Shown one piece after another: positions 26,855 through 58,266 of a DNA stretch of 64,000 nucleotides (the stretch's first letter is position 1; each line of letters begins with the position of its first letter). The notes beneath the pieces were generated by a model. It searched no databases and had not been told where the DNA came from. It saw only the letters and a list, made by a program, of their open reading frames with translations. A program made the position numbers and the translations under genes. Source of the stretch: a virus. Lineage: Duplodnaviria > Caudoviricetes. The DNA is taken from positions 1 to 64,000 of the IMG/VR virus record IMGVR_UViG_2912765049_000001. One strand, written 5' to 3'.

Positions 26855-27027
26855 GGAGCGCCCGGCCCCGGGGCGTGCAGAGGGACGCGGCAGGGCGGAG
26901 CTACGCAATGATCTGTAAGCGTTCTCTAAGCAGCCATCATGTCACGGGCACATGCGTTCGGTAAGAAATTACCTGCGCGTATTCAGCACTGGCCTGCACT
27001 GTTACAGAACGGGGACAAGACGTGGCC

Positions 27028-27390
27028 TCATCGACCTGACGGGGAGTCCCCCACGAAGTCCGGTGCACGGACCGCCTCAACGGCGAGCCCCGACAGATAG
27101 GTCGCCTGCGAGTCGCTCAACACGCCGGCGGCGCGGGCCCCGTCTATCAGCAGGCCGAATCCAGCCGCCGTGATGCGGTGCGCCTCGGCCGTGGCCGGGT
27201 CGGTCAGGGTGCGACCCATGTCCCCGAAGATCTTCTCCCACCAGGCGGCGACCTGGAGGTCGGTGGGACGACCGTCGCCACCGGCGCTCGCCACCGGCCG
27301 GAGCGGGATCACGGCTGCCTCCGGGGAAGGCTGGCGGATCACGCCGTGCTCCTTGCCAGGTTCGTCTCGCGCGGCCAGGCTGGGGCCCAT
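27028..27390 (-). CDS. hypothetical protein
   Basis: AGGTGGAG RBS before ATG. Confidence 0.5.
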   Translation of the reverse strand: MGPSLAARDEPGKEHGVIRQPSPEAAVIPLRPVASAGGDGRPTDLQVAAWWEKIFGDMGRTLTDPATAEAHRITAAGFGLLIDGARAAGVLSDSQATYLSGLAVEAVRAPDFVGDSPSGR

Positions 27391-27964
27391 TACTCCACCT
27401 TCTTCCGGCAGGCTTCTTCGGGTTCACACGGTTCGGCCGCCGGTGGCCTCCGTGCCGAGCCAGAGTGTCAAGATCCACCTGGATGCACCAGGGGGCAGGG
27501 TCAACTTGTCAACAAAGTGATGTTCGGGGCAAGGACCTCGTGACGCTCTCCGGCAGATATGTGGGGGCGCCCCCACGTACGTGAGCTGCCGCGTCCGATG
27601 TTGCCGACAAAGAACACGCACCGCCGTACGAAGGGGCGCCAGAGACCCACCAGGGAGGTGCGCACACCCCCCGGTGACACGGGGAGTGTATCGCGCGTTG
27701 GTTCCAACCAACACTGATCTTTGGTTTTGTGATGGTTGAGAGTGGGGAAACACGGCGAACACGCCGCCCGGCCTCTCCCCCGGCCGCCGGAGTGATTGCC
27801 CCGCAATCACCGAACTCCCCGCCCTTGCCGCGGACTGCGCCACGGCCCGGCCGCCGAAACGACCGGGCCGTGGCGCGTGCGTGATTGCGGGGCAATCACT
27901 TCCTCGTCCTGCAGGCGACGTTCGCCCCTCTCCCCCCGTGGGTGATTGCCCCGCAATCACCCGC

Positions 27965-28816
27965 CTACTTCGAGATCCGCTTGAATCCCAGGCCCTTGGC
28001 CACCGAGAGGTAGTCGGCGGTGGCCTCGCCGGCGCGGTCGAAGTAGAGCAGCGGCTTCTGGTGGGCGTATGACTCCGGGATCTTCGTCGAGCGGCGGATG
28101 CCCGGCAGGACCAGGTCCCCGTATGCCTCCTCCACCATCTTCTTGCCGTCGTCCCAGACAGCTCCCTGGGAGCGGGTGGTGGGAACGTCCACCAGGAGCA
28201 CGCCGACCAACTCGGCGTGGGCTCCGTACTCGCCCCAGGTCTCCTTCACCAGCTCGATCTTCTGCTCGATGCGGGTGAGGCCGCGGAGTTCCTTCAGGCC
28301 GGGCTTGATGCATGCGACGATCTCGTCACTGGCCAGGATGGCGCCGATCACGACCAGGCCGAGGTTCCCGGGGCAGTCGATGATGATGACGTCGTAGTCG
28401 CCCTTGATGGGGGCGAGCAGGTTCTTCAGCCACAGCTCGCGGGCCATGGCCGTCGTCAGATGCTGCTCGGCGTTCTCCATCTCGTGCGATCCGAGCACCA
28501 GATACAGGTTGTCGATGACCTTCGTGTCGGGCCCGCCGAGCGGACCGGCGAGGGCCGGCACGATCGCCTCCGAGAGCTTCACGCTCTTGTCGGTGAGGCA
28601 GTCATAGATGGTCTTCTGGTCCTCGAGCTGGTCGGGGAAGGCGTAGCCGAGCTGGTACGACGCGTCGCACTGGTCATCGCCGTCGACGACCAGAACCTTC
28701 CAGCCGAACTCGGCCAGCTGCGCGCCGAGGTTCACGCCTGAGGTGCTCTTGCCGGACCCCCCGACCTGGTTGGTCATCGAGATGATCCGGGGAACGCGTT
28801 CTGCCTGGACGGTCAT
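27965..28816 (-). CDS. parA: ParA family partition ATPase
   Basis: NQVGGSGKST, VLVVDGDDQCDAS, YDVIIIDCPGNLG and IRRSTKIPES motifs; GGAG RBS. Confidence 0.92.
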   Translation of the reverse strand: MTVQAERVPRIISMTNQVGGSGKSTSGVNLGAQLAEFGWKVLVVDGDDQCDASYQLGYAFPDQLEDQKTIYDCLTDKSVKLSEAIVPALAGPLGGPDTKVIDNLYLVLGSHEMENAEQHLTTAMARELWLKNLLAPIKGDYDVIIIDCPGNLGLVVIGAILASDEIVACIKPGLKELRGLTRIEQKIELVKETWGEYGAHAELVGVLLVDVPTTRSQGAVWDDGKKMVEEAYGDLVLPGIRRSTKIPESYAHQKPLLYFDRAGEATADYLSVAKGLGFKRISK

Positions 28817-29153
28817 GGAGATCTCCACAGTGATTGCCCCGCAATCACGCACGGGATCCTGGCGGGGGAGTGGCGGAGCACCAGGAGGCATCGTGCCGGC
28901 GTGTGAAGGGCTGAGTGAGTACGAGTTCCTGCCGTGTCGTCCGCCTGAGCCGTCAGGTCCGCTGACGGAACATCGGGGAGTGAAGTGATTGCCCCGCAAT
29001 CACCCGCGTGCGCGGGGCCGACGCGGTGAGAGCGTGGCAGGCACGGTAGGAAGGGGAATGCTGGGGCGCACGTTATCGCGCCAGGCAGGAAAAACGCCAG
29101 TCGCCCCGCCGAGAAATCACTCGACGAGGCGACTCGTGGAAAGCGGCGGCGCT

Positions 29154-30416
29154 TCAGTCGCTCAGGATGAGCTCCTGCAGCTCCTCGAACTCGGCAGGGG
29201 AGAGGCGCTCCTTGAGACCGGTGTAGATGTCCTTCACCGTGGTCACGGCGATGACGCCCCGGTCCGAGACCGTGGCAACCGTCCCCGCAGGCTGCTGATT
29301 CTCCGTTTCGGCGGACGACTGCGCACCCCCGTTGGAGCCGGTGGTGGTGGTATCCGGCAGGTTCTGTGGCGGCTCTCCGGTTCCCGTCTCGGGCTTCTCG
29401 GAGGAATCCCCGGTCTGCTCGCCCTCCCCTGTCTCGGTGTTCCGCTGGGAGGGGAACGTGTTCTGCTCGGTGCCCGCGGGCTTGTTCTCCCCGCCGCCTT
29501 CAGCGCCGTTGCCGGACTCCTGCTGCTGGCCGGTGCCGCCGTCCCCAGTGGTCTCCGGCTGGGACTGCTGCGCGGAGCCGCTCTCGCCGGCCCCGGTCTC
29601 CTGCTGGTTGGTGCCGGACTCCGGCTCCTTGGTCTGCTCGGACGGAAGTTGCTGCTGCTCCAGCGGCACCTTGCTCTTGACGATGACCTCGGCGTCGTCG
29701 AAGGACAGCGTGCCGTCGACGTACGCCTGCTGGAGGTCCTCGCGCAGGCCGGCGAGAACGGTGGCGGCCTCCTTGATGGGCAGCAGCCGTTCCCCGCCGA
29801 ACTCGAACTCGAGGCCCCGCTGCCGGCACCAGTGGTCGATGACCGCCTGCTGCAGCGGCTCGATGAGGCTCAGGAGCTTGATCTTGTGGGAGATGGCCGT
29901 CTGCGACGTCCCCTTCCCGAGGCGCTTCGCGAGCTCCCGCTGAGAGATGCCCAGCTCGTCGAGCGCAGCCTGGTAGTCGGCACCCTGCTCAATGGGGTCC
30001 AGTCCCAGCCGCTGCTCGTTCTCCTTCATCGCGGCGATCCGCAGCGAGCCGTTCTCCGACACGGTCTTGCGGATGAAGACCGGCACCTTCTCCAGCCCCC
30101 GCAGTTTCGCGGCGGCCAGTCGGCGGTGGCCGTGCAGAACGACGAAGGGCTTGCCGGACTTCGCGACGTGCTCGCGGTGCTTCGGATAGTGCTTGACGTA
30201 CGCCTCGGCAGTGACGACGGTCAGCGCCTGGACGACTCCGTCTTCGTCGTAGGAGTCGGCAAGCCCCTCGACGTTACGGAGCCGCTTGCGGCCGTTCTCT
30301 GGGCTGGGCAGCAGGTCCTCAACGGGAAGTTCAGACGTCCCCTTGTTGAACAGGCGCTGTTGTTCTGCTGCCGCTCGGTGGGTACCGAGACTGACGTTGT
30401 TTGGCATTCCGGCCAT
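29154..30416 (-). CDS. parB: ParB family partition protein
   Basis: GVVQALTV, LHGHRRLAAAK (CTP-binding GxxR box), ENEQRLGLDPIE, HTH SQRELAKRLGKGTSQTAISH; long acidic linker. Confidence 0.92.
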   Translation of the reverse strand: MAGMPNNVSLGTHRAAAEQQRLFNKGTSELPVEDLLPSPENGRKRLRNVEGLADSYDEDGVVQALTVVTAEAYVKHYPKHREHVAKSGKPFVVLHGHRRLAAAKLRGLEKVPVFIRKTVSENGSLRIAAMKENEQRLGLDPIEQGADYQAALDELGISQRELAKRLGKGTSQTAISHKIKLLSLIEPLQQAVIDHWCRQRGLEFEFGGERLLPIKEAATVLAGLREDLQQAYVDGTLSFDDAEVIVKSKVPLEQQQLPSEQTKEPESGTNQQETGAGESGSAQQSQPETTGDGGTGQQQESGNGAEGGGENKPAGTEQNTFPSQRNTETGEGEQTGDSSEKPETGTGEPPQNLPDTTTTGSNGGAQSSAETENQQPAGTVATVSDRGVIAVTTVKDIYTGLKERLSPAEFEELQELILSD

Positions 30417-30849
30417 CGGGTCTCCGGGGGAGGTGGTGCTGATGTAGTGGGTCTCAGCCGCGAGCTTATCCGTCGGCACGGGGCGGCCGGAGGGGTGGCG
30501 TCCGATACGGGCGCGCACTGTGTCCGAGATGAGCAGAAATGCACCCTGCGGCGGTGGGTCCGGCGGGAAGTCGTGGACGGCGCAAGGTGATTGCGGGGCA
30601 ATCACTGCGGAGCGAGATCGGCGGCCTCGGCTGGCTCGTCCGCGCTCAGTATGCCCTCTGCAGCGGCGCGTTGGGGCGCAGACACCGCGACGAGGTAGAC
30701 CGGCTCCTGGAATATCTGCTCCGGGATGGCCGGCCGGGGGTAGGTGTCGCGCGGCCGGGGTGATTGCGGGGCAATCACTGCACCGGGACGGCGGGGGTCA
30801 TGCAACGGCGCGTTCTGCACTCGGGGTCCTTCTCTCTCGGCCCGCGTCA

Positions 30850-31635
30850 TCAAGGCGCGGGGTCGCTGGGTGTGGAAGCACGGGCTGCGGCGGCCTTCTG
30901 CCGCCGGGCCTCTCGCAGGGCCCGGGCGTGGGTGTCGGCCTTGCGCGCCCTGTCCTCCTCGAGGCTCTGCTGCAGGTACTGCGCCTCGACGTGGTCGTCC
31001 GGGTCCGCCTGGATCCGCATCCGGGTGAGCGGCACGTACGGGGTGCCGCGGGCCGCGTCGCGCTGGGCCTTCTCTTCCCGCAGCCGCTCCCGGACCTGGG
31101 CGTAGTCGGACGTCGGTTGAGTCCCGGGCGGCTGGGAGCGGGTCGGCGGGGAAGGCGCGGGCTCGGCAGCGGACGGTTCCGGTGCGGACGCCGGTCGGTG
31201 GACTCCCTTGCGGACCTTGATGGTGGTGAGCGTGCCCGGCTTCAGCGCACGGTTCACGTCGTCGCACAGCTGCCGGGAGACCAGTGACAGCATCCGTGCC
31301 CAGGAGTCCGACTCGCACACGACGGTCAGGGTCTTCGTCGTCTCGTCGTACTTCACGGCGTGCCAGTGGGCTGCGCGGTCCTCGCCGATGATCGACGGCC
31401 ACTGGTTGAGGAGGCTGCCGCCGTCGGCGGCTTCTTCCCAGCCGTTGTCGACGAGCCACTGCTTCCAGATGCTGCCCAGGGACAACGGGTCGCGTCCGTC
31501 GTAGCGGCGCCGGCGTATGGTCCGCTTCGGCTTGGGCGCCTGCTGATTCCCCTGCCGACGGGCCGCCTCCTTCGCCTGGCGCAGGGCAATGCGTGCCAGG
31601 TCGGCACCGCTTGCGGGAGGCACATCCGTCGTCAT
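30850..31635 (-). CDS. dciA: DciA (DUF721) helicase-loader family protein with C-terminal extension
   Basis: DLARIALRQAKEAAR, GRDPLSLG, GW, LLNQWPSIIGEDRAAH and LTVVCESDSWARML closely follow actinobacterial chromosomal DUF721/DciA. Confidence 0.85.
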   Translation of the reverse strand: MTTDVPPASGADLARIALRQAKEAARRQGNQQAPKPKRTIRRRRYDGRDPLSLGSIWKQWLVDNGWEEAADGGSLLNQWPSIIGEDRAAHWHAVKYDETTKTLTVVCESDSWARMLSLVSRQLCDDVNRALKPGTLTTIKVRKGVHRPASAPEPSAAEPAPSPPTRSQPPGTQPTSDYAQVRERLREEKAQRDAARGTPYVPLTRMRIQADPDDHVEAQYLQQSLEEDRARKADTHARALREARRQKAAAARASTPSDPAP

Positions 31636-31949
31636 CGCGCCCCCGGGAGTGATTGCCCCGCAATCACCTCGGCCGACGCGGGGGAGGGTGATTGCCCCGC
31701 AATCACTCCGGGCCCGGCCTCCGGGTCGCCCTCCAGGGCTCGAGGTGATTGCGCGGCAATCACCGGCGGCGGGGCTGCGGCCAGCACGGTGGGGCAGCGC
31801 CACTCGCTCCGGCAGGCCGAGCACACGGTCCGCCCCTCGGTTTCGACGGGGACGTGCAGGGCGAGCGCGGCACGCAGGCGGCCCAGTTCGGCGAGAAGGT
31901 CGTCCAGATCAGGGTCCGTTATCGAGCTGGCCGTGAGGTGGCGGGACAT
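31632..31949 (-). CDS. small Zn-binding protein coupled to dciA; its 3' end carries three palindromes
   Basis: LH.P......CSAC...WRCPT motif; AGGAG RBS; ATGA overlap with dciA. Confidence 0.6.
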   Translation of the reverse strand: MSRHLTASSITDPDLDDLLAELGRLRAALALHVPVETEGRTVCSACRSEWRCPTVLAAAPPPVIAAQSPRALEGDPEAGPGVIAGQSPSPASAEVIAGQSLPGAR

Positions 31950-31972
31950 GTGGAGTCTCTCCTGACGCGCTG

Positions 31973-33325
31973 TCAGTGCAGGCGGATGCGGGGGTTGTTG
32001 GCGTTGGCGTGGAGCTTCTGGCACAGGTCGACCAGCTCCGGCCCGTACAGCGCGACCGCGACCTGCGGGCCGGCCAACTCGTACGTGGCCAGCACCAGCC
32101 CGGGGTCGCCGTCGTACTTGTAGGCGGCCCACGCCTCGGCCCGCATTCGCTTACGGGTCTCTTCGTCGAGGTCCTCGAGGCCCGCACACTGCGGGTAGTC
32201 GTCGTCCTCGGCCTGCCGCTCGCGGGTCTCCTGCACCGCCGCGGCGAAGTCGGGATTCGGCGCGACCGCGTTGGCCCAGTCCTGCTGCAGCTGGGCATCG
32301 CCTTCGCGGACGGCCCGCTCCCGCAGCAGCCAGCTAGCGATGTACGTGTGGGGCCGGGTCGGCCGCCAGTCCAGGCCGGCCACGACCGAGGGCGAGATGT
32401 CCCGCAGCCAGACGTCGACCTGCTGCTCGGTGCATCCCTCGGCGAGCTTGTCGACCAGCACCCACGACAACTCGCTGATCTTGGCTCGCTGGGTCCAGTT
32501 GTGCAGCGGGCGCAGTCGGCGAGCGAGACGGTCGGCGGCCTGGAACAGGGCAGCGGTCACCTTGTGGCCCAGGGTGCTCGTCTTCGGCGGCTTGATCCTC
32601 GAGGCCCGCGCGCTGCGCGTAGCTTTCTCTTTCCCACCATCAACATCAGCAGGTACGTGGGCGGAACCACCACGAGAAGGGGGCGCAAGGCGCCCCGCAG
32701 CCGACTCCTTCGCCTTCGCCACAGCCTGCTCCCGGCCGGCCTCCGTGAAGCCGATGACCGTCGCCTCGTAGCCGGTGCCTCGTAGCCGGTGGCCCTTGGC
32801 GGCGTCGTACGCGAGCGGGATGGTCGCGCCGTAGATCGTGGCGGTGGCGGTGTACTTCCGGCCCGGCAGACGCAGGTTGCGCTTGGAACCGTGCTCGAGC
32901 CAGACCAGGGCGCCGAGTTCGCGGAGGTACGCCACGTGCCGCTTCACCGTGGACTTGTCCACCTTCAGCTTGGCCGCGGTGCCCAGGAGGTCGTACAGGA
33001 CGATGCCCCGCCGGTAGTCCATGCGGGCGGCCAGGTCCATCGCCACGCGCATTGTGGTGAGGGTGGCCTTCGGGTGGAGCTTCGCTTCGAAGATCAGCCA
33101 GTCCAGCGCGACCAGCCAGTCGCGCGGCTCGCAGCGGCGCGAGGCGGTGTGCATGACGTCCTGGGCGCTGCCGCGGACCAACTCGAAGCGGTCGCGCGCG
33201 GCCTCGGCCGACGGCGTGGAGGGGTCAGGTTTGGGCGCAGATGTGTCGCCCGCAGGGGTGGTGAAGGGCTCGACACTCCCCATTTGGGCAGGGTCGAGCT
33301 GACAAACGGCAGCGCTGTGCTGCAT
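31973..33325 (-). CDS. putative replication initiator, winged-HTH protein
   Basis: LLGTAAKLKVDKSTVKRHVAYLRELGALVW wHTH; heads the dciA-parB-parA unit; role inferred from context. Confidence 0.6.
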   Translation of the reverse strand: MQHSAAVCQLDPAQMGSVEPFTTPAGDTSAPKPDPSTPSAEAARDRFELVRGSAQDVMHTASRRCEPRDWLVALDWLIFEAKLHPKATLTTMRVAMDLAARMDYRRGIVLYDLLGTAAKLKVDKSTVKRHVAYLRELGALVWLEHGSKRNLRLPGRKYTATATIYGATIPLAYDAAKGHRLRGTGYEATVIGFTEAGREQAVAKAKESAAGRLAPPSRGGSAHVPADVDGGKEKATRSARASRIKPPKTSTLGHKVTAALFQAADRLARRLRPLHNWTQRAKISELSWVLVDKLAEGCTEQQVDVWLRDISPSVVAGLDWRPTRPHTYIASWLLRERAVREGDAQLQQDWANAVAPNPDFAAAVQETRERQAEDDDYPQCAGLEDLDEETRKRMRAEAWAAYKYDGDPGLVLATYELAGPQVAVALYGPELVDLCQKLHANANNPRIRLH

Positions 33326-34107
33326 TATGGGCTCGTCGTCCTCTCCGGAGGGCGGCAAAACGAGACCCCTCCTGGGGGCTCATTTGCCTTTCGAAGCACG
33401 AAGGGGGCGTGAAAACGGCCTCTCGGAAGTGCTTCTGAAGGTGGGTGTTTGAGCAGTAACCCGCCCCTGTGATGGGCGGTGAAGTCCCGAACGGCCGAGT
33501 AGCGACCGGGCGATCGGGCCCTAGTGGGAAGTGCAGGCGGGCACCTGAACTGACCACCGTTGGAAGTGGCCGCGCGTGGCTCGACTGGTTGACGGGCAAT
33601 CAACTGGTCGGCGAACAGCGGCCGGCGGAGGGTTCCGTGATTGCGGGGCAATCACCTCCGCGGCAGACCTACGTCATGCCAGCCCCCCTTCGGGGGAGGA
33701 CCTGGCCATCCCTTTTCCGCTGCGAGATCACGCCGAAGACGGCGCCGCCGGTGCGGAATCGAGGAAGAAGAACAGTCCGAGACATGCCAAGACCTGCCCT
33801 CGGGCGTGGCGCGTATGCGCTGCCCGGGTGGGTCCTCATGTGCCGTGCACTGGATGCACGGGTACGATGGCTCATGCCTCGGCCGTCCCAACACGGTCTC
33901 GGCGCTTTTTCGGCCCTCGTTACCCCGGCGTCCACTCCGGGGGTGGCGGGGGCCATAAGCGTTTTCGGACTAGTGCGGCCACCGGATCCGTGATCCCCAA
34001 ATATGGCCAGGGCTGAGCCTACCTCTGCGACCGCGTGGATTGCGACCACCTTCACTCCGACGTGTCGCATCGACTTTTCGCAGGTGTTCACGGCGTTTTC
34101 CTTCCTG

Positions 34108-34557
34108 TCAGGCTGCCGCAGCGGCAGGGGCGTTGGTGGTGTCGCCGGTCGCGGCGCGACGGCGGTTGCGGGCCTGGGTGCCGGCGGCCCGGCAGGGCTC
34201 GCAGGGGCAACGGCGCTTGGTGTAGCTCGACTCCGTGCCGTGCTGGTCGACCTGGAGCTCCGGCCCGGCCGCGCGCCGCGCCTGCTTGCCTGCTTTCTGA
34301 GCGAGCGTCAGGGCTGCCGCGAACACCGAGTCGTGCTGGCGCAGGTTGTACACCGGGGTCCTCGACAGCCCGGCCGATGCTGCGGCCTCGGCCACCGTGG
34401 CACCCCGGCTGATGTCGGTGAGCAGCTGCTCGATCTGCTCCGGGTTGGTCAGGGCCGGCGGCCGGCCCCGGCCGCGCCGCACCGGTACAGCGGGTGCGGC
34501 GGTGCGCGGCTCGTCGTCCGCGGGCGCCGGGCGCAGGGGGAGGAGGGCCGTCGTCAC
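34108..34557 (-). CDS. HTH protein with AT-hook-like RGRGRP and C-terminal HGT/CxCxxC motif
   Basis: GATVAEAAASAGLSRTPVY; HGTESSY...CPCEPCR. Confidence 0.7.
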   Translation of the reverse strand: MTTALLPLRPAPADDEPRTAAPAVPVRRGRGRPPALTNPEQIEQLLTDISRGATVAEAAASAGLSRTPVYNLRQHDSVFAAALTLAQKAGKQARRAAGPELQVDQHGTESSYTKRRCPCEPCRAAGTQARNRRRAATGDTTNAPAAAAA

Positions 34558-35156
34558 GCGGCGGCCTCCAGCTCGGGGCCGGACGGCCGCTCGCCGGAGA
34601 TTCGCTTGGCGGCCTCCTCGAGGAGCGCGGGCACCGTCAGCTCGTCGGAGTGGAAGCCGAGCTGCTCGCACATCTGGGCGTACACCCAGCGGACGTTGGG
34701 GTAGGGCCGCTTCATCGTCTCGGCCGCGGCCCGCAGGTCCGGCTGCTCGGCCAGGGCCTGCAGCAGTGACGCCTGCGCCGGGGAGGGCTCCCAGTTCTCC
34801 GTCGGCTGGGGCCGCTTGTCGCCCTGGCGGGCGAGCCGGGCGCGCCGCTTCTTCTGTGCCCGGCGCTCCGCACGGCGTTCGTCGGCGGTCATCCCGCCCC
34901 ACACGCCGTCGGACTCCCACCATCCGCTGCCGCCGAGGGCGTAGGCGCGGCAGGCCGCCAGGACCGGGCAGCCGCTCAGGCAGACCTTCTTGGCGTCCCG
35001 CTCGTTGGCGGCACCGGGCGTGTAGAAGAGGTCCGGGTCGATGACGAACTCGCCGAGTTCGTCGGTGACCGCGCACAACCGCAGCGGCCAGTTCGGGTGG
35101 GCTTCGAGTTCGGAGAGGGCGGCGTTCTGGTCGGGGCTGAGCATGTCGATCCTCAC
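34554..35156 (-). CDS. WhiB family transcriptional regulator
   Basis: LC...PDLFY...AKKVCLSGCPVLAACRAYAL...GVWGGMTADER. Confidence 0.9.
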   Translation of the reverse strand: MRIDMLSPDQNAALSELEAHPNWPLRLCAVTDELGEFVIDPDLFYTPGAANERDAKKVCLSGCPVLAACRAYALGGSGWWESDGVWGGMTADERRAERRAQKKRRARLARQGDKRPQPTENWEPSPAQASLLQALAEQPDLRAAAETMKRPYPNVRWVYAQMCEQLGFHSDELTVPALLEEAAKRISGERPSGPELEAAA

Positions 35157-40038: not shown

Positions 40039-40057
40039 GTGATTGCCGCGCAATCAC
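40039..40057. repeat. outlying copy of the 19-bp palindrome
   Basis: GTGATTGC-CGC-GCAATCAC upstream of the DUF4326 operon. Confidence 0.9.
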
Positions 40058-58247: not shown

Positions 58248-58266
58248 GTGATTGCGGCGCAATCGC
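58248..58266. repeat. one-mismatch copy of the 19-bp palindrome
   Basis: GTGATTGC-GGC-GCAATCGC. Confidence 0.75.

Follow-up and report, generated by a model that had tools for sequence, protein, structure and literature searches.

The DNA stretch analysed here (IMG/VR record IMGVR_UViG_2912765049_000001, positions 1 to 64,000; hereafter the window) was the first 64 kb of C2, a contig of 151,949 bp which, together with a 9.62-Mb linear chromosome (93.9-kb terminal inverted repeats), made up a genome of two contigs. A 19-bp palindrome, GTGATTGC-SSS-GCAATCAC (S, G or C), was repeated around the parB and parA genes of C2, and it is very probably the parS centromere of the element's own ParB, in a type-I partition system of the cytidine triphosphatase (CTPase) type with a helix-turn-helix (HTH) ParB. 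This assignment was made because the palindrome was replicon-specific and conserved in position, travelled with parBA and changed type together with the recognition helix of ParB, and because the homologous ParB2-parS2 pair of plasmid SCP1 has been proven. Since C2 encoded a tape-measure protein of 1732 amino acids (aa), a large terminase and a tail protein, and the same module was present on a viral relative in IMG/VR (a 141.7-kb contig, rated 97% complete), C2 was regarded as a Streptomyces phage-plasmid. Its module also matched that of the published plasmid pCQ4 (NC_019307). With this assignment, a centromere sequence would be available for a clade of Streptomycetaceae phage-plasmids, among them the pCQ4-like elements (85-90 kb) and relatives of a larger size (140-150 kb).

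Distribution and position of the palindrome

The exact palindrome was counted 12 times in the window and was absent from 100 dinucleotide shuffles. Eleven of these copies were clustered within 5.9 kb (27792-33655), the remaining one was at 40039, and a copy with one mismatch was returned by the window scan at 58248. In the whole genome, 13 exact copies and one near copy were detected, all on C2 (the extra exact copy at C2:149213), and a scan of the 9.62-Mb chromosome gave 0 copies. For the canonical parS, GTTTCACGTGAAAC, nine copies were found on the chromosome and none on C2. An original prediction, made from the letters of the window, had described 11 copies with a centre that was always G/C. 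All 11 were recovered by the exact scan, with the same coordinates and gene positions, and the central triplet consisted of G/C only in 13/13 exact copies; the count itself was too low, the exact copy at 40039 and the one-mismatch copy at 58248 having been overlooked.

The genes of the cluster were ordered, on the minus strand, as rep-like gene, small open reading frame (ORF), dciA, parB and parA. Downstream of parA, the third and second sites (27792..27810 and 27881..27899) were exact matches, and the first (27942..27960) was located 4 bp past the parA stop, a position kept wherever the fetched DNA covered the parA end. The parB-parA spacer of 337 bp held two palindromes, one at 28830..28848, which preceded the parA ATG by 13 nt and was separated from a GGAG ribosome-binding site by 3 nt, and a distal one at 28985..29003. 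Further copies were located 170 nt upstream of the parB ATG (30587..30605), between dciA and parB (30760..30778), and upstream of dciA (31649..31667, 13 nt from its ATG; 31688..31706; 31745..31763). The last clustered copy (33637..33655) was 311 nt upstream of the rep-like ATG, with a degenerate half-copy nearby at 33573-33602. The outlying exact copy (40039..40057) was intergenic and preceded a plus-strand gene by about 55 nt, a distance that was the same in S. muensis, and the outlying one-mismatch copy (58248..58266) was intergenic and immediately past a terminator-like hairpin. Nearly all of the 14 sites were intergenic. The outlying copy at C2:149213-149231 (L043:3214-3232) occupied a divergent intergenic region, and the gene that it preceded by about 68 nt encodes a protein with the KWDG motif that ATP-dependent DNA ligases typically have.

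A total of 15 related loci shared the TGATTGC-N3-GCAATCA core around parB and parA, including pCQ4, an S. albidoflavus plasmid, a Kitasatospora plasmid, S. muensis, IMG/VR contigs and several draft genomes. In scans of whole records, the palindrome was confined to the element and almost only found at the par locus, with 4 copies on pCQ4 (4/4 at parBA), 4 on the S. albidoflavus plasmid, 7 on the Kitasatospora plasmid, 11 on the 141.7-kb IMG/VR contig and 13 in the S. muensis genome, on one contig. Among 2.9 million viral contigs in IMG/VR, the exact pattern was found on 3, of 86, 88 and 142 kb. In a position matrix of 87 sites from 13 non-redundant elements, the palindrome had an 8-N3-8 layout with the core TGATTGC-SSS-GCAATCA; arm positions 2-8 were constant in at least 97% and the outer G in 87%, the three central bases were 97-99% G/C, and the flanks were random.

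Nine of the 15 loci were fetched with 6-9 kb flanks, and positions were mapped on the window and loci L001-L010. In every long-flank locus one site was located 4-8 bp past the parA stop. One or two sites preceded parA: nearer relatives had a site 13 nt before the parA ATG, adjoining the GGAG ribosome-binding site, and the second was 110-155 bp further upstream in the long-flank loci. These loci also had one site 150-190 bp before parB. The block at the 28830..28848 site was conserved in L001, L002, L005 and L010. The sites ahead of dciA, the nearest being 13 nt from its ATG, and the site 311 nt ahead of the rep-like gene were found in the window's sub-lineage only. In L006-L009, where ParB was 37-39% identical, the sites were present and no Rep or DciA homologue was found near them. 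When the 135 predicted C2 proteins were compared with these four loci, the clear homologues beside the sites were ParA and ParB only, and two other C2 proteins gave stray matches (29-30%) at single loci. It was concluded that the sites accompany parB-parA rather than rep, because L006-L009 have the sites and ParBA without Rep or DciA. One of these loci, an S. hygroscopicus contig, also carried one GTGATTACG-G-CGTAATCAC palindrome (L008:10182-10200) 2 kb downstream, besides its GTGATTGC-type parBA sites, and this copy may represent a second par specificity on that element.

Compared to the window, pCQ4 had the same order of a winged-HTH protein, DUF721/DciA, ParB and ParA, and the palindrome at the same parB and parA positions. 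It differed in having 4 sites, none of them near rep or dciA, and its ParB and Rep were 49% and 28-29% identical, respectively; its recombination genes, such as SSB and Rad52-family genes, are of the phage type. In the open-access literature, no paper describing pCQ4-type sites was found, and pCQ4 itself was only mentioned in passing; a full-text search with both arms of the palindrome yielded nothing but matches to unrelated primers.

Site type and ParB recognition helix

The more distant ParBs, which came from a ParB search of 401 Streptomycetaceae genomes, were flanked by other repeated palindromes in the same layout (9-N1-9 in relatives), namely GTGATTACG-S-CGTAATCAC, GTGCTWACG-S-CGTWAGCAC, GTGGAAACG-S-CGTTTCCAC, GTGTTTACG-G-CGTAAACAC, CTTTACG-C-CGTAAAG, TTATCACG-G-CGTGATA (the SCP1 parS2 type) and CCATAACC-S-GGTTATGG (half-site ATAACC). 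In the ParB alignment, every site type was paired with its own recognition-helix sequence. All 16 ParBs of the GTGATTGC type had the helix S-Q-T-x-[IV]-S-[HQ]-[KR], and the helix of the GTGATTACG group was S/T-Q-G-F-[IV]-S-Q-R. The two site types differ by one base, and the GTGATTACG group was 47-51% identical to the window ParB, equal to the most distant GTGATTGC-type members. In the maximum-likelihood tree the 16 GTGATTGC-type ParBs formed one clade (support 100/100), and the 10 site types needed only 9 changes, the minimum possible number. The co-variation of site type and helix was perfect at the level of clades. Co-variation of the ParB HTH with the palindrome in homologous elements, which had been proposed as a check together with the original prediction, was therefore obtained across clades, and at clade level only.

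An experimental anchor for these pairs was provided by the linear conjugative plasmid SCP1, whose ParB1 binds a 13-bp and ParB2 a 19-bp inverted repeat, as determined by chromatin immunoprecipitation sequencing and biolayer interferometry (McPhillips et al., NAR 2026, PMC13245405). Each repeat is present in three identical copies around its own par genes, and both proteins are sliding clamps dependent on cytidine triphosphate (CTP) despite a divergent pocket, box II of ParB2 being G-H-R-R (PMC13245405). The oligonucleotides used were ATTATCACG-G-CGTGATAAT for parS2 and ATTACG-G-CGTAAT for parS1; although a single nucleotide and 1 bp of length are all that distinguishes these sites, they are read with strict specificity (PMC13245405), in agreement with the GTGATTGC and GTGATTACG types being one base apart. 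The parS2 sequence was the palindrome found beside the ParBs of L026 and L027. On an SCP1-like plasmid, parS2 was inside a ParB2 homologue; this protein and the window ParB shared 34% identity in their CTPase and HTH domains (E 1e-20). The parS1 50-mer gave no match in the plasmid collection, so the table of helices and sites is without the ParB1 helix.

The window system and SCP1 ParABS1/2 were alike in a type-I HTH-ParB with a divergent CTP pocket (GHRR box II) and in an inverted-repeat parS with a G/C centre, of which several identical copies surround the par genes and none is found elsewhere in the cell. Several differences were also observed. The half-site is GTGATTGC here and ATTATCACG or ATTACG in SCP1, with 14 copies compared to 3. 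In the window, parB comes before parA in separate units with a terminator, whereas SCP1 has a parA-parB operon, and ParA is 283 aa here, without the N-terminal extension and the signature lysine, and 387 aa in SCP1. The host is a phage-plasmid here.

A 13-19-bp inverted repeat with a G/C centre, next to a homologous ParB whose helix matches the site type, is thus shared with an experimentally defined parS class, and the palindrome would be a new specificity variant in this class, not a new kind of element. The original prediction had called it a dispersed centromere for ParB and also novel. The former is supported by the replicon specificity, the co-travel with parBA, the tracking of the helix and the match to SCP1 ParB2-parS2. 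Novelty applies to the sequence and not to the kind, as 13-/19-bp inverted-repeat parS had already been described (PMC13245405) and the same palindrome is found on pCQ4. From the survey, parS half-sites could be tabulated with the matching recognition helix for about nine ParB clades of Streptomyces plasmids, one of them anchored on SCP1 parS2, and these natural specificity variants can serve the study of DNA reading by ParB and of partition incompatibility groups. One partition-incompatibility group is predicted for the GTGATTGC type, because 16 elements keep the same site despite ParB at 36% identity.

The partition proteins and competing explanations

The parB gene (29154..30416, minus strand) encodes 420 aa, with ParB_N, HTH_ParB, a low-complexity linker and a short C-terminal domain. 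The protein scored 64.9 bits with TIGR00180 (cut-off 58.45) and 39 with PF17762 HTH_ParB (cut-off 22.6), and it aligned with PDB sequences of Spo0J, ParB and Noc. Its CTPase motifs were G96-H-R-R-L-A-A-A (box II) and E132-N-E-Q-R (box III), and its recognition helix was S171-Q-T-A-I-S-H-K. The linker (residues ~255-380, ~130 aa) is rich in Q, E, G, T, S and P and far longer than in chromosomal ParBs. The parA gene (27965..28816, minus strand) encodes a short Walker-type ATPase of 283 aa, which matched Pfam AAA_31 (127.9 bits), CbiA and MipZ and has neither an N-terminal HTH extension nor the ~110-aa N-terminal extension of the SCP1 type. In the alignment its Walker A (residues 14-25) read NQVGGSGKST compared with NQKGGVGKT, and the signature lysine of the deviant box was missing; the xKGGxxK[ST] signature of type-I ParABS was therefore not present. 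This position was V, S or A in all 16 ParAs of the GTGATTGC-type clade (NQ[VSA]GG[SA]GK[ST]T), and ParAs beside other ParB clades retained the lysine (NQKGGVGKT). A working ParA-type ATPase without the signature lysine, McdA, has been reported (PMC6582323). The ParA lineage without this lysine and the exact 13-nt spacing before two start codons were regarded as oddities of the system.

The locus combined the hallmarks of type-I HTH-ParB systems, namely a ParB/Srx CTPase fold, a ParB-type HTH, an adjoining ATPase of the ParA/MinD family and replicon-specific palindromes near par. By homology to SCP1 ParB1/ParB2 and chromosomal ParB, binding of ParB to the palindrome, dependence on CTP and a function in segregation would be expected. 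ParB dimers would recognise each palindrome with the HTH recognition helix (S171-Q172-T173...), nucleate there, take CTP in the GHRR/ENEQR pocket, close into clamps and slide, and one large partition complex would form over the ~6-kb rep-dciA-parB-parA region, which the short ParA ATPase may position on the nucleoid.

Three points weigh against this assignment. The ParB_N score (PF02195, 26.4 bits) was barely over the Pfam cut-off of 26.3. The co-variation of site and helix is correlative, because it holds between clades, and each site type accounts for roughly a single evolutionary event. The sites near rep and dciA were confined to the sub-lineage with this Rep type, and Rep may recognise the same sequence at these sites, which would then have a dual role.

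This last point leads to the explanation that the sites, or at least those around rep and dciA, are iteron-like origin sites bound by Rep. Four sites flank the rep-like gene solely in the sub-lineage with this Rep type, and the 26-36 kb region held no other repeat family (an iteron and repeat search returned the palindrome family only), no DnaA-box cluster (the search was at chance level) and no known RNA (no match in Rfam at a lenient E-value) that could mark an origin. However, the repeats are palindromes identical to the copies at parBA and not tandem direct repeats as in iterons, pCQ4-type elements have Rep and a DciA homologue but lack sites near rep, Rep is absent beside the sites of L006-L009, and the HTH signal of Rep was sub-threshold. 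Origin sites of this kind are accordingly unlikely. An operator of another transcription factor encoded by the element, such as a phage repressor or HTH protein, with ParB binding elsewhere or non-specifically, was also considered. It would suit sites that are nearly all intergenic, several of them abutting start codons, on a phage-plasmid which encodes many uncharacterised small proteins. It is improbable, however, as the only clear C2 homologues near the L006-L009 sites were ParB and ParA, the site type followed the recognition helix of ParB, and a homologous ParB/site pair has been proven.

Very little probability was given to a function of the palindromes as 8-bp hairpins in RNA (attenuator, processing or stability) or to an origin as mobile repeats of the repetitive extragenic palindrome (REP) or miniature inverted-repeat transposable element (MITE) type. 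Two copies were 13 nt before start codons, inside likely leaders, and one was just past the parA stop, as such hairpins might be. On the other side, the arms were invariant and none of the 87 sites showed compensatory arm changes, although ParB was down to 36% identical; the orientation of the asymmetric centre varied relative to transcription, there was no U-tract, and the flanks were unconserved. The copies were also on one replicon and clustered at the par genes.

Possible regulation and other genes of the module

Besides partition, ParB at the sites may well dampen expression of parA, dciA, parB and the rep-like gene, which would make the system autoregulatory and couple it in part to the replication genes; on the layout of the locus this was considered somewhat better than an even chance. 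In type-Ia systems, an N-terminal HTH of ParA carries out autoregulation. Dampening by ParB was suggested here because ParA is without such an HTH, and because sites are found 13 nt before the parA and dciA starts, bracket parA (-13 nt and +4 bp), and are present upstream of parB and the rep-like gene. The location of the three outliers in intergenic spacers points in the same direction. Against this part of the reading, when the parB-parA spacer and the parB leader were aligned, conserved blocks were seen but no convincing -35/-10 pair, and a consensus promoter scan of 27400-34100 gave one irrelevant plus-strand match. The only conserved -10-like motif (TAAGCT-like) was ~55 nt before parB, and since the parB-proximal site was ~110 nt upstream of this motif, it is not a classical overlapping operator. 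Moreover, 11/14 sites were simply clustered, as in many centromeres.

KorB of the IncP plasmid RK2 is a CTP clamp of the ParB family with functions in partition and gene silencing, and its OB sites are many identical palindromes over RK2, several of them in promoter regions of replication and maintenance genes (PMC11790492). From site position alone, a KorB-like operator role with coupling to replication genes, which the original prediction had put forward, is plausible; both systems have multiple identical palindromes, some adjoining replication and maintenance genes. However, OB sites are spread around RK2, and here 11/14 sites were clustered in 5.9 kb. In the Pfam scan the window ParB matched ParB_N, HTH_ParB and HTH_3 only, with no KorB or KorB_C domain, and it was only 27% identical to KorB-annotated proteins. 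No clamp-locking partner resembling KorA or TrbA was evident in the module, where none was sought systematically. A further and rather doubtful proposal is that ParB-CTP clamps, loading at the 11 clustered parS and the three outlying copies, would act as a KorB-like silencer which ties the rep-like gene, dciA, parA and a few phage genes to assembly of the partition complex, with ParA working without its signature lysine. If true, this would be a second, independently evolved circuit of partition plus regulation, in a Gram-positive phage-plasmid.

Another comparison was drawn with phage-plasmid N15, a linear element whose Sop system has four SopB-binding inverted repeats, IR1-4, at dispersed positions (10.1101/862136). 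The Sop system is alike in belonging to a phage-plasmid and in having a ParB-type protein on several separate palindromic sites, some of them adjoining phage control regions. It differs in being a proteobacterial type-Ia system with a long SopA, an unrelated site sequence and 4 sites spread over the genome. An effect of N15 Sop on phage late gene expression was reportedly described by Ravin, Rech and Lane in 2008.

The gene order rep-DciA-ParB-ParA, with parB preceding parA, was as the original prediction had it, and its labels ParA, ParB and DciA were borne out by Pfam and NCBIfam; the label Rep was not, as that protein matched no family model. Directly 3' of parB, a terminator-like hairpin with a T-run was found (29099..29134, minus strand), the stem of which was kept with different sequence in L005 and L010. 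Because this hairpin closes the parB unit, parA seems to be a separate transcription unit. A conserved block (29040-29100, minus strand; …CCGTGCC.GCC.CGC…CCGCG..GGCCC…) was observed upstream of the distal palindrome of the parB-parA spacer in L001, L002, L005 and L010, even where ParB was 49% identical, and a role as promoter or RNA element is possible.

The dciA (DUF721) homologue (30850..31635, minus strand) encodes 261 aa and scored 55.1 bits with Pfam DciA. The possible small ORF (31632..31949, minus strand; 105 aa), which is putatively coding, had no family match and contained a CxxC...C motif; its stop overlapped the dciA start (ATGA). Three palindromes were located in its 3' half in one reading frame, where they would encode VIA[AG]QS repeats. 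This ORF was conserved in L004, L005 and L010 and absent from pCQ4-type elements. The rep-like gene (31973..33325, minus strand) encodes a putative winged-helix protein of 450 aa, a candidate initiator. No match was obtained for it in Pfam, NCBIfam or PHROGs, and a lenient Pfam search gave only a sub-threshold HTH at residues 117-141. Homologues were found on 96 Streptomycetaceae plasmids, and its Atlas neighbours were unnamed or belonged to a cluster labelled 'Replication protein' without a Pfam family.

The module was flanked by stretches of ~0.9 kb (26908-27790) and ~1.8 kb (33360-35150) with no ORFs passing the GC3 filter. Neither stretch contained repeats, DnaA boxes or Rfam matches, and the former included an AT-richer patch at ~27690-27750. 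Elsewhere on C2, a second ParB_N protein was encoded at C2:111415-112728 (minus strand; L042:9415-10728), in which a ParB-like nuclease domain is fused to a DNA methyltransferase (PHROG 498/723), and a further methyltransferase was found at C2:109118-110197.

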